Assembly (NCBI GenBank): GCA_002269645.1
Contig: NIVC01000494.1
Span: 248,001 to 312,000 of the forward strand
DNA length: 64,000 nucleotides
Reading direction: 5' to 3'
Source of the DNA: Macrostomum lignano
Lineage: Eukaryota
Shown: positions 42,346 to 64,000 of the stretch, piece after piece
Numbering within the stretch: the stretch's first letter is position 1
Layout of the letters: each line of letters starts with the position of its first letter
Program-made: the position numbers and the translations under genes
Notes under the pieces: generated by a model
What the model was told of the DNA's origin: nothing
The model's database searches: none
What the model saw: only the letters and a program-made list of their open reading frames with translations

Positions 42346-43968
42346 AATTAAAAATCTGTAGACTATAGTTATAAGATAGAAATTTCCTTGTGATGAGTTA
42401 GTTATTCTAAGCCGAGTCAGTCAAGTTGTAACTGTTATTCTGTTAAGTGAGGCCTTCTCAACTGCGCTCTTCTGTTTCTTGTCTCTTTTGAAGCGCTTGC
42501 CTTTTGAAAAGAATGAGAGTGAAGGGTCAGTCAGTCACTCACTGTCCTTCACTCTGGCTAAAGCCCGTTCACTCGCAGAGTAAAGGAAGATAGGATGACG
42601 GTTTAATTATAATTGACGAGAGCTTGCGGAGTCGGGGTCAGTAAAGAGAGATACGAGACGCGGAGTAGGGAGGTTTGGAAGAGGGGTTGGGGTAGGTTGG
42701 ACTGCGGAGGGAGGGGGGGGGCTGATGGCCAACCAAGCTCACTGCTGCTCCAGTCCAGACTGTCAAAATTTGGCGTGGGCACGACGGGACGGGTCGTAAT
42801 AAAACGTCAAATAAATTTATACACAGTCACGGCAGACTTGGCAGAGCGGCAATTGCTATTGCTAAACGGAGCTTGAGCAGGGGGGGGGCTTGCCTTGCAA
42901 TGCAAAAGAGAATGAATGAATGAATGAAAGAGCGATCTTTCTTTTTAATAACTCGGTTCTGCTCTCTTTGTGAACAGAGCGGCAAGCGGGTGGAGAGGGT
43001 GGGTGCTGACTGCCGTTGCTGGTTGGCTAAATAACAAAAGTGGCAGCTCTCAAAGGAAAATTATACCTATGCAACAAACACCAAGGCAGCTAAGCGGATT
43101 CTTCTGACTTCTTGAAGTTGTGCCGCCGTCTTTTGTAGGTTTGGATTGGGTTGGATTGACTGCCAACGCCAAGCCTGTCTCTTTAGTCTTTACGGTTCTC
43201 AGACTGGCAGCTTAAAGCTGACTGCAGGTTTAGTTATGCCGGTGGCCCGTATATTATAATTGGTTTCCTCCTTGTGGGTGGCACAGTGGCAGGCACAAAA
43301 TCTCTCTTGTTTCGTCTGGACCCGGACCCCGGTTGGGGTTGGGAGAGTGCGCCAGCCGGGCATTGGAGGGTCCGGGGTCCCTTCTTTACCCCCACCTCAC
43401 TCCCCGGGGGTTGAGGCGGTTGAAAAAGTCACACAATCGCAAGTTAAACCTCAGCGGGGGGCATATTATCTCTACCTATAAAAATCAAAACTCTGTGTGT
43501 CTGTCTGTGTGTGGACAATTTTTAGGTTATATAGCATAGTATGAATAATAGTCCAAGTATACTTAATTGACGTTAGTACAAAACCACTACAACAAAGCTT
43601 ACAGGACACCGGTTACATTACATTTTTTACTTCAAACTCAAGACATTTAGAGAATTTAGAGAATAACAGAAATACGCTGACTAGACTAAATGTTAAATGC
43701 TTTCGAAGAATTTCTTTTCGAAGCGTTGGCTACCACTTTTATATTCTAAGCAAGCTACTAATAAAAAAACCATGCTGATACCCCCTTTGTATTTTAATAC
43801 AAAATATTCAAACGCATATTCCGAAATACAAACTACTATAAGTAGACCGTAAAGACCACAACTTTTATTAGGCATTTAATCCGCTGCTGCAGATCACTTT
43901 GTGTTTGTATTCATTAAGGGAATTAAGAAAGGATAATTAGAAACAAGAAGTCGACAATCTGAACGCGT

Positions 43969-44330
43969 AGTAGTAGGAAAGTGGTACCCTCTACCGCCAT
44001 CGCACCGGATTGGCCGGGGCACCCGGCCAATGAGGAGAGACGGCGCCCCCAAAAACGCCCACCCCGACGCCAAACCCACCCCGACCCCCAAACCCACCCC
44101 GACCCAAACCCACCACCGCCACGCACCCAATCCCGACCCCCAAACCCACCCCGACCCCGGCCAAACCCACCACCGCCACGCACCCACCCCGACCCCAAAC
44201 CGGGCCCCCAAAGACGCCCACCCGACCCCAAACCCACCACCGCCGCACCTACCTCCGACCCCAAACCGGGCCCCCTCCTGTCCTGCACCCCATCCCATAC
44301 CAAGGCCCCTTCCTGTCCAGCACACCATCC
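43969..44330 (+). repeat. Left terminal inverted repeat
   Basis: Reverse complement of ~55400-55865, with differences in internal repeat copy number. Confidence 0.9.
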
Positions 44331-44594
44331 CATACCGGAGGCCGGAGAAGGGGGTCGGGCAAGCCCAGGTTGGGGTCGGGCAAGCCGGTCGGGCAAGCCG
44401 GTCGAGCAGGCCAGATGAGGGGTTGGGCAGCTGAGTGTCTGGGTGAGTGTCCAAGGGTGAGTTAAGTGAGTGTTCAAGGGTGAGTTTTGAGATGTGAATG
44501 AGTGTCCATAGTTGAGTATCCTCTACCGCATGTGGTGATACGCAAGACAGAGTTTCAATGTGATCTTAACGGGTAGAGGGTCTGATTGCTTGGA

Positions 44595-44757
44595 ATTTCC
44601 GAGTAGAGAGGGGAAGGGATTCTATTGGTCGAGCAAGCATTTGAAGTGATTTCCGAGTAAAATGTGGAGAATGGATTCTATTGGTCGAGAGGTCCCTGAT
44701 GAACGATTTGGTTTGGACCCTGCGGGAGAAGGGCTCCAGTACCCTTTATAAATAAAG
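44595..44757 (+). promoter_or_regulatory. Putative pPolB promoter: duplicated module with inverted CCAAT boxes plus TATA
   Basis: atttccgagta at 44595 and 44649; ggattctattggtcgag at 44617 and 44673; tataaataaag at 44747, ~70 bp before the ATG at 44815. Confidence 0.45.
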
Positions 44758-44814
44758 CACCTCGGCCCCATATATTTTTTTTTTATTTTAGATTAAATTA
44801 AAAATACAACGAAA

Positions 44815-45590
44815 ATGCAAATAACTTGCGACTTTTGCGAGTCATCAGTAATCGGGGGCATTGAGGAGCACTATGCGGTATGGCCTGCGATACCAGCACT
44901 GTTTGAGTCAGATGACTCCCCAGCGATTCATTTTCAACTGATCAAGGAGGCGTTTAATGGCAGGTCCCAACTTTACCGGGCCAGTGCATGCGGCGACCCG
45001 ATGAATGTTTTGGAAAACACTCGTCAAGCTTTCATTGACTTGATCACCCAGCATCAACGTGAGCCAGGAACCGCCATCAAAGTTCAGCTGCGCCTCGGGG
45101 TCCTGATGCAGCGCATCATTAATGGTAGCTGCGCCGCCGAGAACACTGCCTGGTTTGCTGCCAAGGTCCACTCTCTTCTCCAGAGTGAGGAGGAGTACTA
45201 CTTCTCTGACGACATGCAGACTATCCTCAACCGGATAGAGAAGTAACTACGCAATGGCAGTGGCTGGGTAATCAGGACCACTCGGTGTGTTGACGTGTCA
45301 ACCGCAAGTTATTATCTACCGCATAGAGCGTCGTGCAAAAGGCCAAGAATGAGTTCAAGAAAGACTGCAACAAGCTGCTAAACAACTCCCTGTAGACCAT
45401 CGAGTATGTTCGCAAGCAAGTGGACTACGTGCTGGTTTATTCAGCAGGGAAGCCTGTGGCCCAGCCGACGTTCCGCGATCAGATGATTTTCAACGGGGAT
45501 TTAGCTCTAGTGCACATTCTCAAGACGAATGTTGTGCTCGACAGGCTAGTGTATATCGGCCAGTGCGATCTGTCTGGACACTAGCAAGCT
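44815..45590 (+). pseudogene. Collapsed protein-primed family B DNA polymerase (pPolB)
   Basis: N-terminal region ...KVQLRLGVLMQR...TAWF...ILNRIEK*LRNGSGWVI is typical of the Maverick pPolB N-terminus, with a TAA at 45244. It is joined directly to a motif-B segment AKNEFKKDCNKLLNNSL*TIEYVRKQVD...QPTF...VVLDRLVYIG. Exonuclease, motif A and motif C were not found. Confidence 0.8.
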
Positions 45591-46200
45591 CTTTTTCCCA
45601 CAAATTTTTTTTCTTTGTAAATATCTGATTTAAAACAACTATATGCATGTAAATTTAATACGAACATACTATATTTTGAATAATAATAAATACAAGCTTT
45701 ACTCTATGATATCTAATACGCAGAAATAGAGAAAAATGCTCTTTCACAAAAATATTTTTGCTATAATTAGTCATTTTTTGTGCACAGCTCTGGGGTAAAA
45801 TCCCCATTGAAATGTATGTATTTTATCCACAAGTATGCAAGTTTTCGTCCAGTGATTAAAAGTATGCAATACGGCGTGAATTTTTCGACAAAATGCGTCA
45901 ATTTTCATGCACAGGTTCGGGTACAAATCCCTATTGAAATACATGTATTTTGTGCACAAGTATGCAAGTTTTCGTGCACAGTGTTAAAAAGTATGCAAAG
46001 TGTTGAGGTTTTTTGTGCACACATTCGGGTAAAAATTCCCATTGAAATGTATGTATTTTGTGCAAACATGCATGCTTTTTCGCGCACAACAGAGGCTAGA
46101 AACGCTAAATCCGCAGAAACTGGTGGGGGTGGGCTGTTATTTTTTTTTTTCAAGCAGGTGTTTGGCATAAGAAAATGATAGGTACTAGAAATTTGGTAAA

Positions 46201-47419
46201 ATGAAAAAGAAAAAGGCAATTTCAAACCTTCTGCCAGGTATTTATTTTGACTGCAGTAGACCGGGCAGCTATGGCGGCTATCAGGCATTAAAACGAGAGT
46301 TGCACAAACAGCACGGACCCAAGTTTAGTGTAGGGCAGGTATGTATATACGATATACTTCTAAACCAATTATTTTTTAGAAAATTCCAGCTTAGGTTTTT
46401 AGTTTTATCCACTAGCTAGCAATTTCCAGTTTTTACAATTAAAGGTAAAAACGTGGCTCCAAGACCAAGATGTCTACACACTGCATAGAGATAAACGCAA
46501 AAACTTTCGTCGAGCACCGATTGTGGTGCGGGGCATGGATGACCAGTGGGAACTGGACCTGGTTGAAATGCTACCGTTTGCCAAGTACAATGGCGGCGTA
46601 CGATATATTTTATGCTGCATTGATGTGCTCAGCAAGTTTGCCTGGGCTCAGCCGGTGCGCCGCAAGACAGCCGAGGAGGTTGCAGCCGGATTCGAAGCGA
46701 TCCTAAATCGAGCTCACCCTCGATGCCCACGAGCAGTTCGGACCGACCGTGGAAAAGAGTTTTGTAACACCCAGTTCCGAGCCTTCTGCGTAAACCACAA
46801 AATTCATGCATTCACATCAAGTAGTGACCAGAAATGCGCAGTCATTGAGAGATGGAACCGCACACTGAAATCCCGAATGTGGCGGTACTTCCGTCACAAG
46901 TCAACATTAACCTGGACCGATGTGCTTCAACCCTTAGCAAAGGCATACAACCAGAGTATTCATCGGAGTATTCAAAGCCGACCAGTTGATGTCGACAAGT
47001 CAAACGAGATGGAAATTTGGCACCGGCTTTACGATGGGAAGCTTCCTGAGACTCGTGAAAAGGTCTCCAGACCAAAGTTCAAGGCAGGAATGATGGTGCG
47101 AATCTCTCTTCGCAATCTGGCCAACCCATTCACCAAGGGATACACAAGGGGATGGAGTGAGGAAGTATTTGAAGTCAAGTCCCTCCACCCCAAGCATTAT
47201 CCATACATGTACACTCTGATCGATGCCCGAGGTGAAGAGTTGGAAGGCAAGTTTTACGAGCCGGAAATGCAGCAAGTGACAGGAAACAAGAAGCTGTGGA
47301 TCATCGACAAGGTTCTCAACATTAAGAAGCTGAAGAGTGGAAAGATTCGGTATTTGGTTCAGTGGCGCGATTCAGAAAAACCCAGTTGGATTGACGAAAA
47401 AGACTTAAGAAAAATATGA
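46201..47419 (+). CDS. RVE-family (DDE) integrase with C-terminal chromodomain-like region; exons 46201-46338 and 46445-47419, ~370 aa
   Basis: IYFDCSRPGSYGG...|VKTWLQDQDVYTLH; WELDLVEM, TDRGKEF and VIERWNRTLK catalytic motifs; C-terminal IDKVL...RYLVQWRDSEKPSWI. Confidence 0.9.
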
Positions 47420-48198
47420 AAAGGCAAAGATTTCAGGTAATGTCCGGCCCCGATGATGACCCGGCCAACTTTACTGCTGAGCTGCTGCATCCTGTGCTGC
47501 TGGATTCTGCTTTGGACTATGAGTTGGGTCTGCTTGGAATCAGTTTTATCAACTGCATCTACACGATCCCTCATCCATTGTCGCTATATTATCAGCTTGA
47601 GGGTTCAATGCAATGTGCTGAAATTCCAGCTGGGCGCTACAATGACTTGAATGAGCTGATTGATGCAGTAAATGCTTTACTGATTGTAAAAGATTTTGAT
47701 GAGTCTGGAATTGGCGAAACACCTATAAATGTGCATCTAATTAAATTTACCCTTGATTCAGTTAGCCATTATGTATACTATCAAATGGCTGGGATCTGTG
47801 AGAGATTTATGTTTCCAGAAAACAGCCAGATGGGGAAAATCTTTGGTGCTGCGCAGACAACCTATAGCGAGCAGGCAGGATGCTTTGAACGACCTGGCAT
47901 GAACCCGGCCTGGAATACGGATTTGCTGCTTGTTGAGTGCGATCAGATTAGCCCGCGCTGTATTGGAAATCAGTTTACTCCAGCACTGCAGACTTTGAAT
48001 ATTGGTGGTCTTTTGCAGGATCACCGGTCGGAACTCATCTATAAGAATAAGCTGTTCTTCCCAATAGCAGCAAACCACCGCTTAACACACATGCAAATAC
48101 GGCTACGACCGATCAACTGTATCGAATCTATCCGATTACTCTTTGGACCCACAGTCTTGACTTTTGAGCTGCGTGAGTCATGGACATTCGACAAGTGA
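47416..48198 (+). CDS. Probable minor capsid (penton-like) protein, 260 aa
   Basis: ANFTAELLHPVLLDSALDYELGLLGI resembles the Polinton mCP N-terminus; position between integrase and MCP. Confidence 0.65.
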   Translation: MKRQRFQVMSGPDDDPANFTAELLHPVLLDSALDYELGLLGISFINCIYTIPHPLSLYYQLEGSMQCAEIPAGRYNDLNELIDAVNALLIVKDFDESGIGETPINVHLIKFTLDSVSHYVYYQMAGICERFMFPENSQMGKIFGAAQTTYSEQAGCFERPGMNPAWNTDLLLVECDQISPRCIGNQFTPALQTLNIGGLLQDHRSELIYKNKLFFPIAANHRLTHMQIRLRPINCIESIRLLFGPTVLTFELRESWTFDK

Positions 48199-48443
48199 CC
48201 GAGTTTTATCGAGGCAGTTGCTTCAAACTTCCTCATGGGCACGGATATCCCACATCGCTGCTATCTCGACTGCCCCCTGAGACTCATGAAAATGCAGTTC
48301 TCCTTTCCCGCATACCACCTCCATCGCAGAAAAAACATAAGAAAACGCCAAAAATCAAACCAAAGAAGAGCAAGCCAGTGCCCACAAAAAAGCGCAAGAT
48401 ACCGTTAAAAACAGTCAACCGAGTGCTCGATTCACTCTCATAA
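48180..48443 (+). CDS. Small basic protein (87 aa), candidate virion core/DNA-condensing protein
   Basis: Lys/Pro-rich C-half; fills the gap exactly and overlaps the MCP start (TAATG). Confidence 0.45.
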   Translation: MDIRQVTEFYRGSCFKLPHGHGYPTSLLSRLPPETHENAVLLSRIPPPSQKKHKKTPKIKPKKSKPVPTKKRKIPLKTVNRVLDSLS

Positions 48444-49713
48444 TGTATCGGACAAATCCACGGCTCAATCTGTTTGAGCCAATGACGCATGAAATTGGAG
48501 TGGATAGGTCTCACTTCACGGACTTTCATCCCATCGGCAGTCTCACGACTCCTGATGCACCGATTGAATTCGACTGCCACGCCTCCTCTGAGGACTACAC
48601 CGATCTGCACGCCACAGTGCTGCAAGTCACTTGCCGGATAACTCGTGTGATAAACAATGCAGAGCTGACTAATGAAGATGATGCCCATGTCGGACTATCG
48701 AATCTCCCGCTTGCCAGCCTGTTTCGTGATGTCACTGTAAAACTCAACCAGCGGGTTGTGAGTGGTGGGGACCAGCTCTACCCATATCGAGCAATGCTTC
48801 AAGTGCTGACCAGCAGCAATGCCAACCAGCTTCAAGAACTGGCGGCCGCAGGTTATTATCCAGACACCGCTGGAGAGAGTGACACCATTGGGGAGCAAAA
48901 TCATGGATTCACAAATCGTGCGAGATTGCATGAGGCTTCTGCTGTTGTGCAATATGCCGGCCCGTTGTTTTCAGACATTTTCTCAATCCGGCAGTATCTG
49001 CTAAACCAAATCAGCCTGCAGGTCAAATTGACCCGGCATTGCAGCGCTTTTTCGTTGATGGTACCCAATAATGGAGTTCAATATCGTATTGAAGTCGACA
49101 ATGCTATTCTGCTTTTGAGGCGTCTCCGAGTAAACCCAACAGTGGCTCTCGCACATGAACAGGGGCTCTCACAGCGTAATGCTCTCTACCACTTTGATAG
49201 AAGAGAGCTTCAGACATTCACATTTTCTGTTGGGACAAGAAACAAGAGTCTCGATTCAATCACGCATGGTCAGCTGCCAAAATTTGTGCTCCTTGGAATG
49301 GTCAGCCAGACTGCTTTCAATGGATCTCTGCACCACAACCCGTTTTGGTTCCAAGCATTTGGGTTGAATAGTTTAAGCCTGTTTGTCAATGGAGAGCCAA
49401 TTACTGGGCAGCCCATAGAACCACAGCAGCAGCACTCATCCGAATTTTTGCAGTTTGCCCGCAGTCTCGGTGGAAAATATTGCATAGCTTTGATGAATTT
49501 CGAAATAGTGCCTATCTGCTTGCGTTTGACCTTAGTCCAAGTGGCGATGAAGTAGGCAGCTGGTTTGGTCATAGGCAGGGTCAACTACGACTGGATATTC
49601 GCTTTTCCAACGCTCTCGCACAGCCAGTCACACTCATCTGCTTGTGCGTGTATGATTCATGCATGGAAATCACTAAAGAGAGGGATGTGCTGCTGGATTA
49701 TCGCAGAGCATGA
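48443..49713 (+). CDS. Major capsid protein (double jelly-roll), one frameshift near 49485
   Basis: FHPIGSL...PIEFDCHASSEDYTDL..TVLQVTCRI, SLFRDVTVKLN, YPYRA and LPKFVLLGMV. The C-terminus continues in another frame as SFDEFRNSAYLLAFDLSP...GQLRLDIRF...DSCMEITKERDVLLDY. Confidence 0.88.
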
Positions 49714-50183
49714 ATTCCGAAGAGTTGGAAGCGTTCATTTCTCGCTGCCCCACATCTGTGCGGGATGCCTATTGCGGAAATTTTACAGTTGGAACAGTGA
49801 CACCATTTTTCGATTCAACCTGCCGACCCTGCTGCTTCATTTTGTATGAGCCATGGAATGATGAGTGCGGTCACTGGATTGCTGGAGTAGTAACAAGTAA
49901 AGTGCATTGTGAAATTTTCAACTCTTTAGGAGGCTTGAGTAAAAATATGAAGAGCTGGTTAAAGAAAACTAAACCGACGCGGATGGTGCTGCAATGGAAT
50001 ACGGTCCCTGTTCAGCCCAGTTCGTCAACTCTATGCGGCTGGTATTGCATTTTTTACTTGATCCATCGACTACATAAGAGAATGTCATATAATGCCTTGT
50101 TCATCAAGGTTTTGCACCCGGCAGCTGTGGCTCAAAACGATGCAATCATACTCAGACTCAAAAATCAGTTGCAAGGTGTTTGA
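49710..50183 (+). CDS. Adenain-like cysteine protease, 157 aa
   Basis: GHWIAG (His), IFNSLG and VQPSSSTLCGWYCIFYL (Gln...Cys). Confidence 0.88.
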   Translation: MNSEELEAFISRCPTSVRDAYCGNFTVGTVTPFFDSTCRPCCFILYEPWNDECGHWIAGVVTSKVHCEIFNSLGGLSKNMKSWLKKTKPTRMVLQWNTVPVQPSSSTLCGWYCIFYLIHRLHKRMSYNALFIKVLHPAAVAQNDAIILRLKNQLQGV

Positions 50184-50798
50184 TTCCAGACTGCGGATGG
50201 GAGGCTGCATGATGGTTTCGGGCCCTTCTCGAGCGGGAAAATCAACATTCTGTTTGCGGTTGCTGTCCCAACGACTGCTTTGTTCGACCAACCTCCCAAG
50301 CGGATGATTTGGTATCACGGATGCCCGCAGCCGGAACTCCACGCGACTCTGCGGCGGCTAGGAGTGCAAGTATGTGAAGGATTATCGAATTTGGATCTGC
50401 AGCCCCATGACCTGATTGTGATTGACGATTTACTGGATGAAGCAGCTGCAAGTCGAGAGCTACGACATCTGTTCACCCGTGAGGCCCACCACAAGCCCTG
50501 CTTTGTCATTCTCATCACGCAAAATCTATTTTTCAAAGGCAGAGAGTGGCGCACAATTAGCATAAATTGCACCTACATTGTGTTGTTCAACAACCCCAGA
50601 GACGCCTCTGCGGTCCAAGCTTTAAGTCAGCAATGCTTTCCCAAACGGCGCACTCTGCTAGTAGAACTGATGGATCGATTGGTGCGAGATGGAGATCAGC
50701 GCTATCTGCTGCTTGATTTTCACCCCGCTTCGCCCCATGAACTGCGCCTGAGAGCCAATTTTCTCCCCGATGAGGCCCCGCAGCGAGTTTATCTATAA
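50140..50798 (+). CDS. A32/FtsK-like packaging ATPase, one frameshift near 50275
   Basis: Walker A GPSRAGKS (frame from ATG 50140); Walker B LIVIDD and FTREAHH...ITQNLF...RTISINCTYIVLFNNPRD (frame from 50280). Confidence 0.9.
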
Positions 50799-50828
50799 GA
50801 ATGGCTCAGTATCTGCACTGAGTTAAAC

Positions 50829-51161
50829 ATGGATAAACACATTGCACTAATAACTGTCTTTTGTGAGGGCACTATATCCTTGCGTCGCTGCATACTTACC
50901 TATGCAAATAAAAGCACCATTTGCTTTTTGGTTGAGTGTATTATAAATCTACTAGCAGGAAAAGTTTGTTGTGAAGATAGCTTGAAGCGGAGACTCAGGC
51001 GATATCGAAATACTCTCCGGCTTGTTGCACAAAGCAAAAGTGTGAAAGAGGCTCGGCGCAATCTCTCACACCCGCATATCCTTCGTTGTCTTCCTCTGAT
51101 TCTCACCTGTATAAAAAGACATGTACAAGGAAATGATACTGGTACCCCGGTTGCAGTATGA
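50829..51161 (+). CDS. Conserved small Polinton-type ORF (110 aa), function unknown
   Basis: ICFLVECIINLLAGKV...LKRRLRRYRNTLR resembles an ORF pattern I associate with Mavericks; located in the co-oriented block. Confidence 0.55.
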   Translation: MDKHIALITVFCEGTISLRRCILTYANKSTICFLVECIINLLAGKVCCEDSLKRRLRRYRNTLRLVAQSKSVKEARRNLSHPHILRCLPLILTCIKRHVQGNDTGTPVAV

Positions 51162-51717
51162 GGCACTTGTGAATCAGAGGGGCATGGAGACAGTCTGTGA
51201 ACCCGAGCTAGAGGCGGAAAAACAGTTGCGCAAGATTAGGGACGAGCGTTGCGTGCAGCAGCTGCAGGCAAGTGCGACCCAAGAACAGCCTCCAGTAATT
51301 CACAAAGAACCGCAGTGGAAGGAGGTTTTATATCTGACGGTGAATCAGAAATGGCATCATCGTCTGCAGGCATTGATTAGCTTCATAACCGTAAAGTGCA
51401 AGTCGATTAGCATAGATGATACGTATGAAGTTTCTGTCAATGGTAAACCGTTGTACAACTCAAATATCGTGGACCTGCTGTATTTCATAGTTAAAGATAC
51501 GTACTCTAAGTATCTTCAGCCACCGAATGGGATTAATGAGTTTGTTACGTGTCTTCAAGAAAACCACGTGCCTCTGTCTGCAGTTGGTCTGAACACTACA
51601 AAATTGCTGGAAAAGCCTCGGGAAGAAAAGTCCAGTCCTAAAAAACCTCGACTGCAAGGCTATAAGAAGACTCAGTCTCAGAAAGGATACGGCAAGTGGA
51701 TCAAGTGGCCAAGATGA
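51121..51717 (+). CDS. Conserved Polinton-type ORF (198 aa), function unknown
   Basis: VNGKPLYNSNIVDLL...PPNGINEFVTCLQENHVP pattern; the stop overlaps the next ATG. Confidence 0.55.
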   Translation: MYKEMILVPRLQYEALVNQRGMETVCEPELEAEKQLRKIRDERCVQQLQASATQEQPPVIHKEPQWKEVLYLTVNQKWHHRLQALISFITVKCKSISIDDTYEVSVNGKPLYNSNIVDLLYFIVKDTYSKYLQPPNGINEFVTCLQENHVPLSAVGLNTTKLLEKPREEKSSPKKPRLQGYKKTQSQKGYGKWIKWPR

Positions 51718-52229
51718 TTGTCATTGATTTTGAAGGATTTCCGCACCTCTACAAAACAGAGGACTTTGTGATTAAGGAAATTGCATGGGTTGAGTTTGCA
51801 TGCGGTCAAACGACGGCTCATTACTATTGCTACCAGCCGCCGCACAGCTTTGAGCTCTTTGATCGAGGACAGCGACGAACCTGCTACTGGCTCACCAATA
51901 AGCGGCACGGTCTAGACTGGGACAGGAGTGGGTTCCGACCCTACTCTTGTCTCTGGAGCGATATCTCCCACTTGCAAGGCCCGATATTCAGCAAGGGGGA
52001 TGTCAAGTGCCAGTTCCTGTCGCGTCTGCTGCTACAGCCTGTCTACGACCTCGCACACCTGGCCTTTCCGAGTGCCTCGAAGTACGTGCTACCCTGCGCC
52101 CTGGCCAAGGTGGCGCTGTACGCTGATTGGCTGCGGCCTCGCGGCTACGGGTCTATAAAAGTAGCGATCTGCAGCAGGCACTGGCATTTCTCTCGATTGT
52201 CTGGTTTTGTCTCGCATAGAGACGCCTAA
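51714..52229 (+). CDS. DEDD/DnaQ-like 3'-5' exonuclease
   Basis: MIVIDFEGF (ExoI DxE), FVIKEIA, HGLDW, IFSKG and CALAKV. Confidence 0.65.
   Translation: MIVIDFEGFPHLYKTEDFVIKEIAWVEFACGQTTAHYYCYQPPHSFELFDRGQRRTCYWLTNKRHGLDWDRSGFRPYSCLWSDISHLQGPIFSKGDVKCQFLSRLLLQPVYDLAHLAFPSASKYVLPCALAKVALYADWLRPRGYGSIKVAICSRHWHFSRLSGFVSHRDA
52154..52202 (+). promoter_or_regulatory. TATA box plus initiator-like leader
   Basis: TATAAAAG at 52154-52161; CATT with A at 52186 (32 nt downstream). The leader aggcactggcatttctctcgattgtct is repeated exactly at 53063-53089. Confidence 0.5.
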
Positions 52230-53093
52230 CCGCAGTCACTTCTGTGAAACTTGTCTCTGCCTGGCTGAAAGCTTGTAATGAGTGAGTAGGCTGGGTTGGA
52301 GGGTAATAGTGGATCGGGAGGGGCTGTGGGTAGCTGTATAGGAAGGCAGGCCTATACCTGTACCAAGGTGCTCTGACGGTATCCCTCAGGCGCCCTCTGA
52401 GCGTACAGCCAGCGACCCTATTAAAGCTGGAGTGTGCCAGAACCAGGACTGAGTCTGAGCAGGACGGGACCGTTGGCACGGTCACAATAGAAATGGCGGG
52501 TTGGCGAAGCAAAGGGTGAAACAGTCCCGGCGATTAGCCCTCCTGCCGCTTCAAAGATAAGAGACTGTCTGTTGGCAAGAGTACCCGGGGTCTAGTTGGG
52601 GGGGGAGGCTCCTTCGGGTTGCCACGGCCGTGGGGGGCGGTCAAATGACCGGCATTGGCTTAACTAACCCAGGAGTAGGCACGGGCTTCCCTGAATGGTT
52701 CACTCAACCCCCTCTGGCCCCGGGGAGGTTTTTGATTTGTACCCGGGGTGGTGGGCGGTCGGCCCCAGCATGGTTGCCACGGCTCTAGGCCTTCGGGCCA
52801 TCTCTAATAGGCTTTGGGGGCCTTCTAACCTGGTTTTTTGGGCACGGGCTTCCTGACTGGTTCGTCGAACCGCTGTCACTGTCCCCCGGGGAGGTTTGGT
52901 TTTTCTGATACTGCCCTGTACAGTCCTCTATAGTCTAATTTGGCTTTTAGTGTACATGAGTACACTCCCAATCTGGAATCTAAATTATCTCTAGTGGCGT
53001 AAGAGCCTTTTTACTTAGGCTGAGGCGCCGGAAGTACTTATCATAGTCATAGTCATAGTCATAGGCACTGGCATTTCTCTCGATTGTCTAAAG

Positions 53094-53744
53094 ATGGCCG
53101 CAACAATTCGCGTAACAAACATCGTGACAGGAGCCGACCTGGCGACCCGGGTGGGTCTGCCACAACTAGCGAATTTCCTGACTCTTCATCTGCCTCAGTA
53201 TCACACAATCCGCCATCGCCTGGTTCATCCTCGAACACTGGCTGTGGTGATGAAGAGCGGGCAGCATCGAGTAACCGCGCTGGTGTATCCGACCGGACAA
53301 GTGTCTGTCTGTGGAGCCAAAAGCATGGAGGAAGCTCTCGTAGAGACAGAGAAGATTGTGAAGCTGTGTGCAGACTTCTTGCGATTGACCAGTCTGCCCC
53401 AGATTCGCATCAAGACTATTACCTCTGTGACGACCTTTCCCGCGGGTCGGCATCCACTCCGGTTGGGGGAAGTCAAGTCTAAATGGCCGCATCGGGCCAC
53501 CTACGAGCCGGAAATGTTTAACGGACTTGTGCTCGAGTTTACTGCTTCTGTAAAGTTGATTTTGTTTCATTCATATCGCTGTATAATAGCTGGTGCTCGC
53601 AGCGTGGTTGAGGCTCAGACTGCAGCTGATGCCCTCTCCCGCATTTTGCATGCAGACCAAGCATCCGAACCTACTTTGCTGGACTCTGACTCAGCTCCTC
53701 TACGGCATAACAGTAGTAGTGAGATCTGCCTATGCACCGAGTAA
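53094..53744 (+). CDS. Divergent TATA-binding protein (TBP)-like protein, 216 aa
   Basis: Two TBP-like repeats: VTNIVTGADL...AVVMK...TALVYPTGQVSVCGAKS and ...TYEPEMFNGLVL...KLILFHSYRCIIAGARS. Compare TBP QNIVAT, TALIFASGKMVVTGAKS and SYEPELFPGLIY...LLIFVSGKIVLTGAK. Confidence 0.82.
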   Translation: MAATIRVTNIVTGADLATRVGLPQLANFLTLHLPQYHTIRHRLVHPRTLAVVMKSGQHRVTALVYPTGQVSVCGAKSMEEALVETEKIVKLCADFLRLTSLPQIRIKTITSVTTFPAGRHPLRLGEVKSKWPHRATYEPEMFNGLVLEFTASVKLILFHSYRCIIAGARSVVEAQTAADALSRILHADQASEPTLLDSDSAPLRHNSSSEICLCTE

Positions 53745-54130
53745 TAATAATAATAATAATAATAATATTTTTGCTGTAACTTTACTTCTGTATTTCTTTT
53801 GTGTACAAAAGATAAGAAAAAATAAACGCGAATGCAACTATGTTTGTGCAACAATGCTTACAAAAATGAAACGTTTTTTTTTTGTTTATTTTATTGGCAG
53901 GTCCATGGATTGCTAAGCATAAAATTACATGTTAAAAGCTCCTATTAGCACAAAAAAAGTTTATGAAGAATGGAAGGGCAGTATTAAGGCCTGTCACGTG
54001 TATTTACAAAACAGGTATTATCGCAAGAAATTAAAGCATCATGGGGCAATATTATAGCCAGTATTGACAAAGCAGTATATACAACAGTGCATGATCAGTA
54101 CTATGGTTCAAAACTATATTAAAAAAAAAG

Positions 54131-54826
54131 TTACTTGACGAAATGACCAGTTGTCGCTTCATGCATTGCGCGTCGCTTCATTGGTGGCTGGTGGCATGAA
54201 GGCTGTTGGTTCTTCTCAGCTGTTGATGGCTCTTCCAGAGTTTCGGATGCAAATCTCTTTCTAAATTCAGCCTGAACTGCCTGGAAAGCCTCCCAGTGGT
54301 CGTCCCACTCTGCCGGCTGCCTGTCAGGTACTTGTATAAGTTGGTCGAGTGTAAGCCTTGCTGCCCATGCTGCACACTCTTCAGGCTCCGTAGGGTGGTA
54401 TCCCATCCACCATGGATCGCCGATCGGTGGCTTGACCGGAGGTTCTCGCTTGTCAATTTTGTCTAGGACCCAATGCTTTTGAGCCCAGACTTCGCGCCAA
54501 AGTTTTGTAGGAAGCGGTAAGGCGTGCCTTAGGTGCACCGGCGGTCCGAGTACAGTTGGAAGGCGCCAGAGTGTGATTACGCCATTTTGCACAACCACTT
54601 GCCTGTTGCCACCCAGAAGGCATTGCGCATCGATACACTTTCTTGCAAACTCTTCCAGTCGTTCCTTCAGGCTGCCCAAGTGGCAAAACTGGTGGACGGT
54701 GAGCTCCATGCCAGGCAGACCTGGTCGATACTCTTCATCAAATTTGTACCACTTTCTGATGCTGATGCACTTCGAGTGCGACCTGACGCCGATTCGAAAT
54801 CTGTTCGATAATGTCTTGAAGTTCAT
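54131..54826 (-). CDS. PC4 (Sub1/p15)-like ssDNA-binding/coactivator domain protein, ~231 aa
   Basis: N-terminus FKTLSNRFRIGV...ISIRKWYKFDEEYRPGLPGMELTVHQFCHL fits the PC4 pattern (vdIRe.Y....kPgkKGIsLt.eQw..L). TATATAA ~45 nt upstream of the ATG on the minus strand. Confidence 0.65.
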   Translation of the reverse strand: MNFKTLSNRFRIGVRSHSKCISIRKWYKFDEEYRPGLPGMELTVHQFCHLGSLKERLEEFARKCIDAQCLLGGNRQVVVQNGVITLWRLPTVLGPPVHLRHALPLPTKLWREVWAQKHWVLDKIDKREPPVKPPIGDPWWMGYHPTEPEECAAWAARLTLDQLIQVPDRQPAEWDDHWEAFQAVQAEFRKRFASETLEEPSTAEKNQQPSCHQPPMKRRAMHEATTGHFVK

Positions 54827-55399
54827 TTTGTTCACTGTGAGCTTTCCTTCCGGCTGTGTGCGAGATTATATACGACGAGAGTTGGTAAGTAACACCAGCT
54901 CCCGCTCCATCGCAATAACCAATCCGAACCCCGAATCCAACCCCACACAACAGCCCTCTCGCAGGAACTCTCGGCAAATCAGGAGCCCTTCCGGGGACCA
55001 CTCAGCCATTTAGAAACCAGCTCCTGTTCCATAGCAATAACTAATCCGAACCCCAAATCCAACCCCCACACAGCAGCCCTTTCGCAGGAACTCGGGCCTC
55101 AACAAAGTCTCAGCCATCAACGTAACAGGAGGTGGCGGGACCTTCTTGCGGCCCTCTGGCCGCCAAGAAGTAGCGTTCTAGGTCTAACGACCTCACGCTG
55201 TACCCGCCACAGCAAGATACAGTACAACCAAAGCATGGAATGAGGGTTTTGCCTTGGCTAGCTTTAAAGGCGGTAAGTGAGACAGGTAATAAGACTTGGG
55301 TTTAGGAATTAGGAGGGGGGAATTGGTTTTGGTTAGGGTACAGGATAGAAGGACCTTGCTACATGGGATGGGGCAAGGCGTAGGATAGGAGGGGGCCTT

Positions 55400-55865
55400 G
55401 GTATGGGATGCATGGGGTGCAGGACAGGAGGGGGTCTTGGTATGGGATGCACGGGGTGCAGGACAGGAGGGGTGTAGGACAGGAGGGGGTCTTGGTATGG
55501 GATGCATGGGGTGCAGGACAGGAGGGGGTCTTGGTATGGGATGCACGGGGTGCAGGACAGGAGGGGGTCTTGGTATGAGATGCACGGGGTGCAGGACAGG
55601 AGGGGTCTTGGTATGGGATGCACGGGGTGCAGGACAGGAGGGGTGTAGGACAGGAGGGGGCCTGGTTTGGGGTCGGGGTGGGTGCGTGGGTTTGGGGTCG
55701 GGATTGGGTGCGTGGCGGTGGTGGGTTTGGGGTCGGGGTGGGTTTGGGGGTCGGGGTGGGTTTGGCGTCGTGGTGGGCGTCTTCGGGGCGCCCTCTCCCC
55801 TCATTGGCCGGGTGCCCCGGCCAATCCCGTGCGATGGCGGTAGAGGGTACCACTTTCCTACTACT
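55400..55865 (-). repeat. Right terminal inverted repeat with expanded internal tandem units
   Basis: Multiple cttggtatgggatgcacggggtgcaggacaggagggggt units, versus about 1-2 in the left TIR. Confidence 0.88.
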
Positions 55866-57114
55866 ACGCGTATTAACCACCTGCGTGAGTTTAAGCACAC
55901 AACAGAATTTTATGCAACGGCTGCTCTTGATGCAAGCAAATGTTTAGTTTTCAATGGACATTTATTTATCAAAGGTAACATAAAAGTGAAACAAATTAAA
56001 CAAACAGTCAATTTTTTTCTAATTTTATTTTCGACACAAAAATACATTTAGATCAAATGGTTTTTATTGTATATGCATAAGAATAATTAACACATACCTG
56101 CTCTATGTATTACCTTCTTAGCTAATCGGCAGACATTGAAAGGTGAACACACCAAGGCGGCAACAAACTTCAAACTAAATTAGCCGGGAAAAGCAAAGTA
56201 AGACTTGTAAGACAAAGCAATTGCTCAGCTAGTGCAGCCAGTAGAAAAAGCGCATATAGCACGTAACTAAGCGCATGAAAGCTAGAGAGAGAGATGAGAC
56301 CGCGCCTCACGGGTCAGCAGATTAAGGAATGAGCTAAATCTATAATTAGCCAATGAATCAACAACTAAAATTTTGATTTCTCACTATATTATTAATAAAG
56401 CAAAATGGTAGAAACACTCAAAGCTTAGTAATGATTACATCCGATTGGAATGGCCAAAATGCCTTGAATAAATTTTTACATATTATAAGAATAATTAAAG
56501 GAACAAAACTGTGTATTTAAATAAATAAAATAGAATAAAACAAACTAATTACAGGTGCAAAGCAAGCAAAAATGTCAGACAACAACACAATTCCCAAAGA
56601 AGAGTCAAAATCAACACAGCGATAATTTTTCTCCACAGAATCAAACACAGACAGTTGATTGGTTGCCTCAGATTCGGACACGCGGCACAAGTTGAGAGGC
56701 AACAAGTCGTACAGCAAAGAAAAAAAACAGAAACTGCAACAACAGTTCCACTAATCAAGGTAATTATTAGTAAGTTTTTTTTATAAGTCCGATTCTGCAA
56801 ACAAGGAAAGAAAAGACACACGTTACGTAACTTTCATTATATTGAAGTTGTACCTTCTTGTATATACTACTTACTTGCTTAGTAGATCGAATTTCTTTGG
56901 CTTTAACCGTCTATTTATACTACTTAGTTCAACGAGTAATAAGTAGGGTGAACGATTACAATTCTTGAAACAGTTGACGCTGTTAAGCAGGCATGAACTG
57001 GATGTAAATATTAAATAACTAATTATTGTGGCCATATATTAATTAGTAGAAAAAAAATTACACACTGAGCTGCTATTACAATCAATATAGTCATAATTAT
57101 GAATAGTTATTAAA

Positions 57115-60100
57115 TCACTGATTGTGATGATTGTGTCGATGACTTCGGCTGGAGCTTCTTCGCCTAGATTTGTGATGCGAGGATTTCCGTTTGTGCCGCT
57201 TGTGATGGTTTTGGCGGCGACTGTGGTGGCGATCGTGCTGCTGGTGATGGTGACGCTTGCTGCGTTTCTGTGGGAAAAATTTAATGGAAAAATATCACAA
57301 CGGTAAAGCAGCTCAGCGCTTAACGCGTCTGACTGTTGCGCGTCAAGTCAGTGGGGCCACATTCAAGAAATTCGTGCACGGCATTTAGCGGATGCGCTGC
57401 ATAAGCGCGCAGTTGCATAAGCGCAGCAGTTGCATAAGCGCGCAGTTGCATTAGAGCACATTTGCATAAGCGCCAGTTGCATAAGCGCCAGTTGCATAAG
57501 CGCCAGTTGCATAAGCGCAGCAGTTGCATAAGCGCGCAGAGTAATAAGCCCGCAGTTGCATAAGCGCGCAGTGTGATAAGTGCACAGCTGCATAAGCGCA
57601 GCAGTTGCATAAGCGCGCAGTTGAATTAGAGCACATTTGCATAAGCGCAAATTTGCAAAAGCGCGCAGTGTAATAAGCACGCATTTGCATAAGCGCTAGT
57701 TGCATAAGCGCTAGTTGCATAAGCGCAAAATTGCAATAAACAATATAAACAATGTAGCAAATTTCAAGTTACCTTAGCGGTTTCCCGGTCGCTGCTACTA
57801 CTGATTTCGTCACTGTCGCTGTTGCAGTCTTCTTTGGCGCTATTGTGAGCACTGTGCGCTGCTGCGGCGGAAGCGGCGGCGGCGGTGGCCGCGGCTGCGG
57901 CGGGCCCGGAGCAGCATTCCACCCAGTCGTATTCAGACGAGGAAGGCGACGAAGAGGACTGGTCTTGGCTTGCTTTCCGCTTCAAGCTGGACGATTGTTG
58001 ATGCCGCTGCTGCTGCTGAGGCTCGGAGTTCGAAGCGGCTGGCAGCTGATACGACGGCGGCGGAGTCCGTGCCGACGCTCTAGCATCAACTGGCGCAGAT
58101 GCCGACGCCACGACTGACTTAGTAGGCTGCGGAGGCGTCAACTGCATCACGAGTTGTTGCTTTTGCTGTTGCTGCTGCTGCTGCAGAGGAACCGGGACAC
58201 AGCTGAACTTGTTGCCCTCAACCTTGTGTATTTTCAATCGAATACAAGTGGACGACGGCGACGCGGCGGCAGAGGCGGACGAATGAGACGGCGACTGGGA
58301 AGGACTGCCGTAGCTAACTAATAACTCACTGTTGCCAGACTGAGCTGCTGCAGCCTGAGCTGTCGAATCGCTTGTAGAACCGTTGTTGCTCTTTGAAGAA
58401 TAGCAACTAGAGTTGACATTGCGAGCGGACATGAACTGTAACAGGTCGGTTTTGCTGCCACTACTGGTGCTGCTACCGCTGCTAACTGATCCGTTGCCAT
58501 TGCAATTGCCATTGCTGGAGTTATTGCGCAGGACAAACACTGGACGCGGTGTAAACATCGGTCCAGACGATGTTGTCGACGTTATAGTGGACTGAATCGG
58601 ACTAGCGGCCGATGACACCAGCACGCGAATAGTGGAAGTGGACGGAATCGATCGAACGGCAGCCGTCTGGCTAGTCGGTATCGATGACACCGGTATCGGC
58701 GGAGCAGCAGCAATAGGCGGCGTCGGATGAGGCGCATCCACAGTGGACACGGGCCTGGCGCCGTTGCTACTATTGCTGTTATTGTTGACAAGAGCTGACA
58801 GGTCAGTCCGCCTGTAGAACAGAATATACGGGCAAGAGTTCAGCACCCGAGTCTCGCTGATTCGTTCAACCGAGGCATCGTTCAAGCACCACCAGGCTTC
58901 GTTGCGTTTAGCGTAGCAATAATAGTGCCCAAACTTGGTGCTGGCGCCGTGGTGTATGACCACGGAGTACAGGTCGTATTGCACTGGCCGGCCTCGCTTA
59001 GACATGAACGGACGCAGGTCCAGACTAAGCGGAAACTCAACAAACCGGCTAATCTTGCTGTTGTGACCCCATTGGAATCGGTTCAACTGGATAGTTAAGA
59101 TTGGCGGGCCAACAGCGATGCTGAAACTCTTCATAGCAGTCACTTTTGTGCGACATTTCTCGCATTTGTAAGCGTTGGAGTCTTTCAACAGATCGGCGGA
59201 TACAAACCGCTGCAGACAGTCGATCAAGTTGTTGCTGCTCTGGATGCACAGGCTTAGATCCATGAAATCGTCGAATGTCTGCGACTGGGCGCCGCATTTT
59301 GAGCAGAGTACGGACGATTTGAGCTTGCCACAGAATAGCACTCGGATTGGATTGGATGCGCGCCTGTTGGTTGCAAAAAAGCAGTAAATTTTATAAATTG
59401 CTCAGGTACCTAACGGTATTACTGCTCCCGCAACTTATCAGCAGGTATAGCTCGTATTATCGGGACACTGCTACTCATCACACAGGTACTTTTGACGGCC
59501 ACAACTCGGGTACTTTTGACAGGACACAGCTACTCATCAACCGGTATGTTTGACTGGACACACAGCTACTCATCAACCGGTATGTTTGGCAGGACACACA
59601 GCAACTCATCAACCGGTATGTTTGGTAGAACACACAGCTACTCATCAACCGGTATGTTTGACTGGACACACAGCTACTCATCAACCGGTATGTTTGACTG
59701 GACACACAGCTACTCATCAACCGGTATGTTTGACTGGACACACAGCTACTCATCAACCGGCATGTTTGGCAGGACACACAGCAACTCATCAACCGGTATG
59801 TTTGGTAGAACACACAGCTACTCATCAACCGGTATGTTTGGTAGAACACACAGCTACTCATCAACCGGTATGTTTGGCAGGACACACAGCTACTCATCAA
59901 CCGGTATGTTTGACAGGACACAGCTACTCATCAACCGGTATGTTTGGTAGAACACACAGCTACTGATCAACCGGAATGTTTGACTGGACACACAGCTACT
60001 CATCAACCGGTATGTTTGACAGGACACAGCTACTCATCAACCGGTATGTTTGGTAGAACACACAGGTACTCATCAACCGGTATGTTTGGTAGAACACACA

Positions 60101-60860
60101 GCTACTCATCAACCGGTACGTTTGACAGGACACAGCTACTCATCAACCGGTCCTTTGGTGGTTAATAGTTGAAAAAAACGGGACGAGACAATGATCAATT
60201 TAGTAGAGATTTTAAATGAAATGAAACAAAATTAGACACAAAAGAACCTACTTCAAGTAATATAAATGTCACAAAATGTCTAAAAAAGGACACAGCGGAC
60301 TCTTACTTAGACTCGGCGCCCGTATAACCGTGCAAACAATTGCTCTCCATATAGTCCAATAGGCCGCGCAAAAACTCGTGCGCATCCTCTTGCCGATTAA
60401 GGCGCATTGTAGGCGATATAGCGCTCAATCTGTTCATGAAAGCGCGCGGATAACAGGCCGACCCGGGGCCGCAGCTGTAGCGCTTATAATAGCGCACAAA
60501 TTCGCAAACTGCGCACCATTTGTCAACGCTAGGCACAATTCTACAAGTTGACACGTGACTGCTCAATACGAAATTGATAAAAGCCGGCGTGTGCAGCAGA
60601 GACTGGAGCACAGAGATCATATAGCAGTAGTTGCCTTCGTTAGTGAAGCCAAACGGTAGACCAGTGTAGCTGTGCTGCAGCTGTACCAGCTTGTAGGAGA
60701 ACAGCTTTGGTTGCTGCTGCTGCTGCTGCTGCAGATGCTGCTGCCTGTCTCCATTCAATAATCTGTGATGCCCGTAGCCGTTCGAAGTTGAAGCGATCGA
60801 TCCGTTGCTATTAGAGCCATTCTGCTGCTGCTGCTGCTGCTGCAGGATGGGTGCCAGCAT
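57115..60860 (-). CDS. USP36/USP42-like ubiquitin-specific protease; exons 60860-60307, 59363-57773, 57267-57115
   Basis: Cys box GFTNEGNYCYMISVLQSL; QEDAHEFLRGLLD; Zn-finger C..C; His box YSVVIHHGASTKFGHYYCY...WWCLNDASV. Phase-consistent GT-AG introns; Ser-rich tail and His/Arg/Lys-rich last exon. The start codon is uncertain. Confidence 0.88.
57400..57730. repeat. Intronic repeat on gcataagcgc core
   Basis: Tandem variants. Confidence 0.85.
59500..60150. repeat. 36-bp intronic minisatellite (cacagctactcatcaaccggtatgtttgactggaca)
   Basis: Tandem array. Confidence 0.93.
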
Positions 60861-61065
60861 CCCGGGACGCTGGGCGGCGATTGATGAAGCCAGAATTGTC
60901 AAATTAGTATCACTTGTAACCAGATAAATTTATATTAATTATTATTTAATCCAGATTCCAAAACTGCGGCGACTCAATTCGGCATGCGATCAGATCAGGA
61001 ATGTTTGGCAACCTTTCTGATTAAGCTACTAAAAGTAGTATTATGATTCAATTTTAGGTCTACAT

Positions 61066-62163: not shown

Positions 62164-64000
62164 CTACCAACGTCCGCCGCGAGCTTTCTTCTTTTTCTGC
62201 TGCTGCTGTTGCTGCTTCGGCTTAGTCGCCGTGGCGGCGGCGGCTGCTGCTCCGACAGCCGATTCTGAAGGGGCAGCAGCGGCCGCGGCGGCGCCTTCGG
62301 CAGCTTCAGCGGCGGCGGCCATCTGTCTGGCTCGAACGTCCAAATCGCCGGAGGCCGCGGTGGCGCCCTGCGGTCCGCGCGTCATCTGCCTGTGCTTGTC
62401 CTTCTTCTTGCCCCGATAGTAGGAGCGCTCCCGGCGGGGCAGCCAGCGCTCGGTGTCGGGCGGCGGCCCGGCAGGATCGAAGTTCTTAGGCAGCTTGCCC
62501 TTCTTCTTTTTCTTCTTCTGAGCGGCGGCAGCCGAGGCTGGCGAAGCGGCGGCCTGCTTAGCCGCTTCTCTGCGGATGCGAGAAATATATTGATTTTGAT
62601 CTGTTTGTCAACAATAATTGCCGCCGAAGTTGAGATACTGGCGCTAAAGTTGAGATACTGGCGCTAAAGTTGAGATACTGGCGCTTAATTTGAGTTACTG
62701 GCGCTAAAGTTGAGATACTGGCGCATAATTTGAGTTACTAGCGCGTTAAAGTTGAGATACTGGCGCTAAAGTTGAGATACTGGCGCTAAAGTTGAGATAC
62801 TGGCGCTAAAGTTGAGATACTGGCGCTAAAGTTGAGATACTGGCGCTAAAGTTGAGATACTGGCGCTAAAGTTGAGATACTGGCGCATAATTTGAGTTAC
62901 TGGCGCGTTAAAGTTGAGATACTGGCGCTAAAGTTGAGATACTGGCGCTAAAGTTGAGATACTGGCGCTAAAGTTGAGATACTGGCGCTAAAGTTGAGAT
63001 ACTGGCGCTAAAGTTGAGATACTGGCGCTAAAGTTGAGATACTGGCGCTAAAGTTGAGATACTGGCGCATAATTTGAGTTACTGGCGCGTTAAAGTTGAG
63101 ATACTGGCGCTAAAGTTGAGATACTGGCGCTAAAGTTGAGATACTGGCGCATAATTTGAGTTACTGGCGCGTTAAAGTTGAGATACTGGCGCTAAAGTTG
63201 AGATACTGGCGCATAATTTGAGTTACTGGCGCATAATTTGAGTTACTGGCGCGTTAAAGTTGAGATACTGGCGCTAAAGTTGAGATACTGGCGCATAATT
63301 TGAGTTACTGGCGCGTTAAAGTTGAGATACTGGCGCTAAAGTTGAGATACTGGCGCTAAAGTTGAGATACTGGCGCATAATTTGAGTTACTGGCGCGTTA
63401 AAGTTGAGATACTGGCGCTAAAGTTGAGATACTGGCGCATAATTTGAGTTACTGGCGCATAATTTGAGTTACTGGCGCGTTAAAGTTGAGATACTGGCGC
63501 TAAAGTTGAGATACTGGCGCTAAAGTTTAGATGATACTGGCGCTAAAGTTGATGCTGGCGCTAAATTTGAGATACTGGCGCTAAAGTTGAGATACTGGCG
63601 CATAATTTGAGTTACTGGCGCGTTAAAGTTGAGATACTGGCGCCAAAGTTGAGATACTGGCGCCAAGTTGAGATACTGGCGCTAAAGTTGAGATACTGGC
63701 GCTAAAGTTGAAATACTGGCGTGTTAAAGTTGAGATACCGGCGCTAAAGTTGAGATACTGGCGCCAAAGTTGAGTTGCTGGCGCGTTAAAGTTGAGATAC
63801 TGGCGCTAAAGTTCAGATGATACTGGCGCTAAAGTTGATGCTGGCGCTAAATTTGAGATACTAGCGCCAAAGATTAACTACTGCGCTAAGGGTTAGCTAC
63901 TGGTGCTAAAGTTGAGATATAATAAACAAGTCAAACTTACTTTTCACCGGATTTAGCCGGTCCAGGAGCCCGCTTGGCCGAATATTTCGAGCCGAACGCG
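62164..64000 (-). CDS. SRP72: Signal recognition particle subunit SRP72, last two exons (64000-63941 partial; 62569-62164)
   Basis: KKKKKKGKLPKNFDPAGPPPDTERWLPRRERSYYRG (SRP72 RNA-binding domain); phase-2 GT-AG intron. Confidence 0.9.
62630..63890. repeat. 20-bp intronic minisatellite (ctaaagttgagatactggcg) with interleaved variant unit
   Basis: Tandem array in the SRP72 intron. Confidence 0.95.

Follow-up and report, generated by a model that had tools for sequence, protein, structure and literature searches.

A very probable, family-specific functional spliceosomal intron in the integrase gene of a Polinton of Macrostomum lignano

The window analysed, which is the whole stretch of 64,000 nucleotides taken from contig NIVC01000494.1 of Macrostomum lignano, contains an 11.9-kb copy of a Polinton/Maverick element on its forward strand (43969..55865), delimited by its inverted repeats, its sequence and its sister copies. 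The element belongs to a Polinton family. It is bordered by a 6-bp target-site duplication, the hexamer on the left (43963..43968) being identical to that on the right (55866..55871), both given on the forward strand. The termini read AGTAGT...ACTACT, and the terminal inverted repeats extend over approximately 370 nt with internal tandem repeats. The inverted arms at 43963-44052 and 55782-55871 were found to be 96% complementary. The flanking host gene encodes a ubiquitin C-terminal hydrolase (Pfam UCH; 57330-60929, reverse strand) whose apparent introns contain minisatellites, and an exon at 62164-62607 on the same strand presumably resembles the RNA-binding end of SRP72.

All genes of the element but the last lie on the forward strand. 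The first one is an N-terminal stub of a gene for a protein-primed DNA polymerase (44797..45600, from the list of open reading frames), which contains a stop and whose remainder is absent in the window copy. This assignment was made by resemblance: a similar N-terminus heads a long DNA_pol_B_2 frame in sister copies (1112 aa, E = 3e-12), and the stub would thus be the polymerase N-terminus. The integrase gene follows, with an exon 1 of 46 codons that covers the first part of the N-terminal domain, as judged from homologue N-termini (46201..46338), a putative spliceosomal GT-AG intron of 106 nt in phase 0 (46339..46444), and an exon 2 of 324 codons with the rve core identified by Pfam (46445..47419). 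The next open reading frame (47416..48198, 260 aa) was taken from the same list and may encode a minor-capsid-like protein, judged by its position only; a Pfam search with it gave no match. Its substitutions amounted to 7/579 at nonsynonymous (N) and 14/165 at synonymous (S) sites, and in the gene-by-gene N/S table, from which the TBP-like gene was left out, the other three non-integrase genes had too few changes for comparison. The major capsid protein gene (48443..49712) has a frame broken near 49.5 kb in the window copy and is a longer single frame in sister copies. Its first ESM Atlas match was "Major capsid protein" (score 0.98), with a double-jelly-roll-like family assigned to 16% of the members. 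Neither a Pfam match nor a PDB sequence match was obtained for it, and the double-jelly-roll identity is that of the ESM Atlas clusters. A cysteine protease of the adenain/Ulp1 type is suggested at 49710..50183 by a weak Peptidase_C48 match (E = 0.0097, below cut-off). It is followed by a packaging-type ATPase from the list of reading frames (50184..50798), broken near 50.3 kb in the window copy, for which weak AAA matches, below cut-off, were obtained in a sister copy. At the right end, a TBP-like gene is carried by the element (53094..53744; Pfam TBP, E = 9e-19, two stretches) together with a PC4-like gene on the reverse strand (54131..54865; Pfam PC4, E = 6e-5, below cut-off). Both genes are common to the sister copies.

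A high-copy repeat of 887 nt is inserted at 52176..53062 (forward strand) with a 27-nt duplication. It was found in the window copy only, being missing from the sister copies that span its site, and the joint 52175-53063 was present in all four sequencing runs used. The repeat ends in an (AGTCAT)n tail, has 313 candidate sites in the genome, many of them 96-99% identical, and is very deep in run X1; it looks like a young non-autonomous retroelement. The polymerase stub, the broken capsid and ATPase frames and this insertion make the window copy defective, and many other copies of the family are also defective in genes other than the integrase.

Some further features were observed in the left part of the element. 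When the left arm (44337-45797) was compared with loci L083, L091, L093 and L095, the polymerase regions could not be aligned, and the integrase and capsid genes were near-identical. The existence of two left-arm types in the family suggests that Polinton lineages have exchanged polymerases. Ahead of the integrase start, at 45770-46088, two to three imperfect units of about 115-125 nt are present and are kept in sister copies and relics; they are possibly promoter or origin repeats. T-rich tracts ending in AG were also detected shortly upstream of the integrase (46139-46157) and polymerase (44775-44791) starts, and T-rich stretches precede the integrase ATG in other families (L054-L074). These tracts could be acceptors of a 5'-UTR intron or of trans-splicing.

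Exon 2 of the integrase matched Pfam rve (PF00665) with an E value of 6.5e-14, above the curated cut-off. Its homologues carry PF00665 and, mostly, also PF00385, and going by these labels the C-terminal end of exon 2 would be chromodomain-like. The closest outside homologues were the proteins P0001 (77% identical) and P0002 (72%), and the nearest solved structures to P0001 were foamy-virus integrases. Exon 1 matched the N-termini of both proteins (E = 5e-8 and 1e-10, respectively). P0001 and P0002 read Q|V across the site, the end of exon 1 and the start of exon 2 meeting in them at an offset of exactly 0. An exon-1 match at E < 0.01 was obtained for 11 of 54 homologues, with offsets from 0 to -5, in a set of intron-blind gene calls where interrupted relatives would be under-represented. 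The source of P0001 and P0002 could be DNA or RNA, and the P0002 cluster has members on JGI contigs of 6.6-7.3 kb. A metagenome scan for the DNA of close outside homologues gave 18 loci, all of them 48% identical or less, and a viral-contig scan with P0002 gave zero loci.

The integrase frame starts at the ATG at 46201 and is interrupted by a segment with the donor CAG|GTATGT at 46338/46339 and the acceptor TTTTACAATTAAAG|GTA at 46444/46445. The preliminary description had placed the end of the N-terminal part and the continuation after a T-rich acceptor at these same positions, and the coordinates were reproduced. The 106-nt segment has a GC content of 26%, versus 45% and 48% in the upstream and downstream coding flanks, respectively. 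Exon 1 (138 nt, 46 codons) and exon 2 (975 nt, 324 codons and a stop) join in phase 0 into 370 codons, in agreement with the reading frame of about 370 aa predicted after removal of the 106 bp. When left unspliced, the frame of the window copy terminates at a TAG (46417-46419); the stop proposed at 46419 was therefore correct for this copy, but 24 of 27 copies stop earlier, at a common TGA. The segment is flanked by a 5-nt direct repeat, AGGTA. Based on the dinucleotide frequencies of the element, the chance of finding GT and AG both at the two fixed points was estimated as ~0.004.

A branch-point-like sequence, CACTAGC, was detected at 46410..46416 (forward strand); in the alignment it reads CACTAAC, a CTRAY motif, in L015-L017. 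It is a putative branch point of the window copy, in whose segment a CTRAY motif was not found and whose T tract near the acceptor is short. The site is deleted in the 95- and 96-nt copies. In the relics and in L015-L017, CTRAY motifs lie 16-39 nt from the acceptor. A second in-frame CAG, an alternative acceptor candidate, is located at 46427-46429 (forward strand), 15 nt upstream of the AAG acceptor, and it leaves an uncertainty of five codons in the acceptor of the window copy. As an acceptor, AAG is less common than CAG. The upstream CAG is in frame at offsets of 15 in the 106-nt copies and of 21 and 24 in others, and out of frame at offsets of 14 (95-nt copies) and 20 (111-nt copies). The AAG acceptor is favoured because only this one stays in frame in all copies.

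In order to place the segment within the family, a DNA search of the 764-Mb genome was carried out, which yielded 42 matches at 30 loci, with scores for 40 of the 54 candidates. The segment is present at each of the 27 loci, among them the window copy, in which both junctions are covered, so that a copy-specific lesion, for which the preliminary description envisaged other copies without the 106 bp, was clearly ruled out. CAG|GT and AAG|GT were conserved in 27/27 copies, with a donor CAG|GTATG in all of them except one GTATT, and the acceptor was retained in the three partial loci. The segment measured 106 nt in 15 copies, 95 nt in five, 112 nt in three, 126 nt in two, and 96 and 111 nt in one copy each. 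In two older relics, GTATGT and AAAG were kept around 187 and 178 nt; positions +1 to +5 of the donor and the terminal AAAG thus persist even where the segment has nearly doubled. Ten copies were fetched end to end, and eight of them had both termini and their own perfect 6-bp duplication; the ends of the other two were not recognisable. As the segment is found at many independent insertion sites with their own duplications, it has been inherited through many recent integrations. Several copies (L083/L084, L087/L088 and L093/L094) lie inside simple-repeat or minisatellite DNA, a possible target preference of the family. Locus L124 (G000:C254:494400-502900) carries some 5 kb of inserted DNA within the intron, located a few bases past the donor.

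With the window copy as reference, substitutions were scored at 29 loci, L026 and L027 being set aside; the unit counted is the copy and not the independent event, and duplication in the assembly may account for some of the loci. In exon 2, changes common to at least three copies were 11/763 at nonsynonymous and 21/209 at synonymous sites (ratio 0.14). Singletons, which are mostly post-insertion, were 51/763 for nonsynonymous changes plus stops and 16/209 for synonymous ones (ratio 0.87), and the two classes differed significantly (Fisher P = 1e-4). For exon 1, the shared changes were few, 5/110 and 4/28 (ratio 0.32, P = 0.09). Pairwise comparison of exon 1 with L023 gave pN = 1/110 and pS = 4/28 (P = 0.006), and comparison with L026 gave P = 0.024. 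These values indicate that both exons are under purifying selection among the segment-bearing copies, in the case of exon 1 from few changes. Shared indels showed a different distribution, with five in the 106-nt segment versus a single in-frame event in the 1113 nt of the exons (P = 3e-5), in a post hoc test that omits the indels present in L026/L027 only (three in the segment and four in the exons), as the two loci could stem from a double assembly of one decayed insertion. Four of the five segment indels, or their sums, are frame-changing in some copies; the +5 and +6 events are possibly a single poly-T event. With respect to L026, 13 of 106 segment sites differ, which is below the synonymous-site divergence (0.23-0.32) and suggests that the segment is not evolving fully freely. 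Taking together the constraint on the exons and the frame-changing indels of the segment, the simplest reading is that a single protein is translated from the two exons after the segment has been cut out of the RNA.

Regarding the origin of the segment, the site was uninterrupted in 26/26 sampled loci of other integrase families of the same genome (picked from 151 protein matches), which are only 55-63% identical in protein. In a quick IQ-TREE analysis of 41 exon-2 regions, with SH-aLRT as the only support measure, the four segment-bearing rows formed one group (SH-aLRT 96), nested in a group with P0001 and P0002 (SH-aLRT 100). The continuous relatives and the grouping in the tree point to the family having gained the segment once, at a CAG|GT site and on its own branch. 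An introner was rejected, as similar copies in unrelated genes were absent: in a genome search with the segment, 30/30 matches sit at the integrase of the segment-bearing family. A search of Rfam over 43900-56000 with E up to 1 gave no match, and the folding of the segment was not unusual (z = -0.47), on which grounds group I and group II introns were also discarded. A tandem duplication of exon sequence was dismissed by eye, the segment ends sharing only AGGTA with the flanks. According to PMC3443670 and PMC4202315, a repeat of this type is expected where an AG|GT proto-splice site has received inserted DNA and been duplicated, and in the former source 5-bp repeats are described as equally frequent around old introns in Drosophila. 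Since such repeats are equally common at old introns, AGGTA does not prove a repair origin, and the route of the gain stays conjectural.

Four contig-only sequencing runs, chosen from 24 listed, were inspected over 44700-54880; they are only guessed to be RNA, and none of the listed holders is on record as RNA. The joint 46338-46445 was not listed in these four runs, and two contigs, X5 (46196-46780) and X8 (46155-46572), run uncut through the segment. The runs cover the element evenly, both coding and non-coding parts, and reproduce deletions of defective genomic copies, such as 49356-49871, which is also found in locus L086. They look as if they came from many silent copies, whether as DNA or as unprocessed RNA, and were taken as uninformative on splicing.

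We consider it very likely that the segment is a real, family-specific and functional spliceosomal intron of the Polinton integrase gene. One Polinton family would have gained an ordinary spliceosomal intron, and the host spliceosome would remove it to give the 370-codon integrase. The intron would have arisen once, on the branch leading to the segment-bearing family, when a piece of AT-rich DNA entered a proto-splice site, CAG|GT, and the short duplication of AGGT(A) that came with it provided both splice sites. Nuclear transcription of the element by the host machinery would explain why the insertion was tolerated. Transcripts that retain the intron would hit a stop after some ten codons and yield no integrase. 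The splicing most probably takes place constitutively, or is simply leaky, and does not serve as a dedicated switch. The comparative evidence of copies, homologues and selection, from which we infer splicing, lends good support to two proposals of the preliminary description, namely a spliceosomal nature of the segment and a dependence of integrase expression on splicing by the host.

The same description also suggested a control like that of the P element, or a functional short product, for which direct support was not obtained and which we regard as unlikely. Splicing would then be restricted to certain tissues or states, and a conserved 56-aa N-terminal peptide made from the retained transcript would lower integration, for instance as a poison of integrase multimers; the P element intron IVS3 offers a precedent (PMC7776569). 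The common TGA is compatible with such a peptide, as it follows 10 retained codons in 23 copies and 12 in one, giving a product of 56 aa (58 in one copy). Within the first ten retained codons, the three shared substitutions are all synonymous in the exon-1 frame (6.3 S sites of 30; carried by 7, 10 and 4 copies), the single replacement is a singleton and the sole indel among young copies is in frame; in the four runs only unspliced contigs were seen. However, the synonymous hint is weak, coming from three changes selected post hoc, all of them transitions and one at donor position +6, with a rough chance of ~0.03. The peptide of about 56 aa has no catalytic core and ends before the conserved WL...TLH of the N-terminal domain, whereas the 66-kDa P repressor keeps its DNA-binding domain. 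Moreover, the length of the product is not kept in older copies, with four retained codons in L119/L120 and a frame that reads through in L026/L027, and the common TGA has disappeared from the window copy. We are equally doubtful of the full picture of a capsid-encoding, still-moving animal DNA virus with its integrase under a host splicing switch, in which the retained RNA would make a selected 56-aa repressor peptide. If true, it would be an independent invention of P-element-type control, choosing between integration and a latent or episomal state.

An inactivating insertion fixed in a non-autonomous family, moved by the integrase of another, intronless Polinton family, would explain the absence of a spliced contig in the four runs, and the AGGTA direct repeat alone would yield GT and AG ends without splicing, as a by-product of a duplicated AGGT target. 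Intronless integrase families are numerous in the genome and many copies of this family are defective in other genes. Nevertheless, the N/S ratio of 0.14 on shared changes versus 0.87 on singletons is not expected of a dead integrase, the exon frames stay intact while the segment changes in length, and the relics retain both the terminal AAAG and the donor from +1 to +5. The candidate helper integrases also have only the 55-63% protein identity given above. By the selection signal this explanation appears strongly disfavoured, and we rate it as quite improbable. Hardly any weight is given to translation of exon 2 from its own first ATG, with exon 1 as a relic or a separate peptide and no need of splicing. 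Exon 2 does contain the entire rve core, but no Met occurs in it until codon 31, and the first catalytic Asp (codon 38) follows only seven residues later, so that the N-terminal domain would be lost. Furthermore, exon 1 itself is constrained, and a full N-terminus is present in all close homologues.

Introns are ordinary in nuclear DNA transposons. The surprise is therefore limited to the virus-like class of the element and to the assumption in annotation that is broken. Polinton core genes are treated as intronless in PMC8097293 and 10.1101/2022.07.12.499685, the former relaying a statement of "no introns" by Kapitonov and Jurka 2006. The premise of the preliminary description that Polinton genes are usually regarded as intronless thus agrees with these sources, but the segment-bearing integrase is very likely an exception. 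The element shares with the animal Polintons/Mavericks described there its terminal inverted repeats, AGT-type ends and 6-bp duplications, as well as the rve integrase, the capsid gene and, in sister copies, pPolB, with a putative protease and a putative ATPase besides; it differs from them in the inherited intron of a core gene with a signal of selection. Spliceosomal-type introns are also found inside the introner-bearing Maverick-Polinton-like proviruses of dinoflagellates (PMC11957031 / PMC12166617). Those are transposable introners, mostly acquired post-integration, in contrast to the present intron, inherited through many transpositions in an animal. Ginger1 (PMC2836005), with 1-4 introns, and the P element (PMC7776569) have GT-AG introns in an integrase-like or transposase gene, as observed here, but both are small cut-and-paste transposons without capsid or polymerase. 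For the P element, tissue-specific retention and a large repressor are demonstrated, whereas the present intron was deduced from sequence. The gained introns of Daphnia (PMC4202315; review PMC3443670) resemble this case in the AT-rich insert, the duplicated AG|GT and the lack of codon loss, although they lie in host genes and not in a virus-like element. Group I introns in protist Polinton-like viruses (PMC12220804) likewise interrupt a Polinton-like gene; they are ribozymes of 300-380 nt, unlike the 106-nt, unstructured segment, which has no Rfam match. A literature search by title, abstract or passage listed no paper in which a core gene of an animal Polinton is described with a spliceosomal intron that is inherited; Repbase/Dfam entries and paper supplements may already annotate such introns.

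Large surveys call Polinton genes with intron-blind tools, and one of the two counts interrupted copies as decayed (PMC10120064; 10.1101/2025.04.19.649669). With an inherited integrase intron in a recently active family, active families would be misclassified in such surveys, or their protein cut short. The TATA-binding-protein homologue carried by an animal Polinton may merit a separate study. The integrase intron would also be indirect evidence for nuclear transcription of Polintons by the host machinery. With a dated single gain, intronless sister lineages and some thirty descendants, the family would offer a clean system for studying how the ends and the length of a new intron settle.
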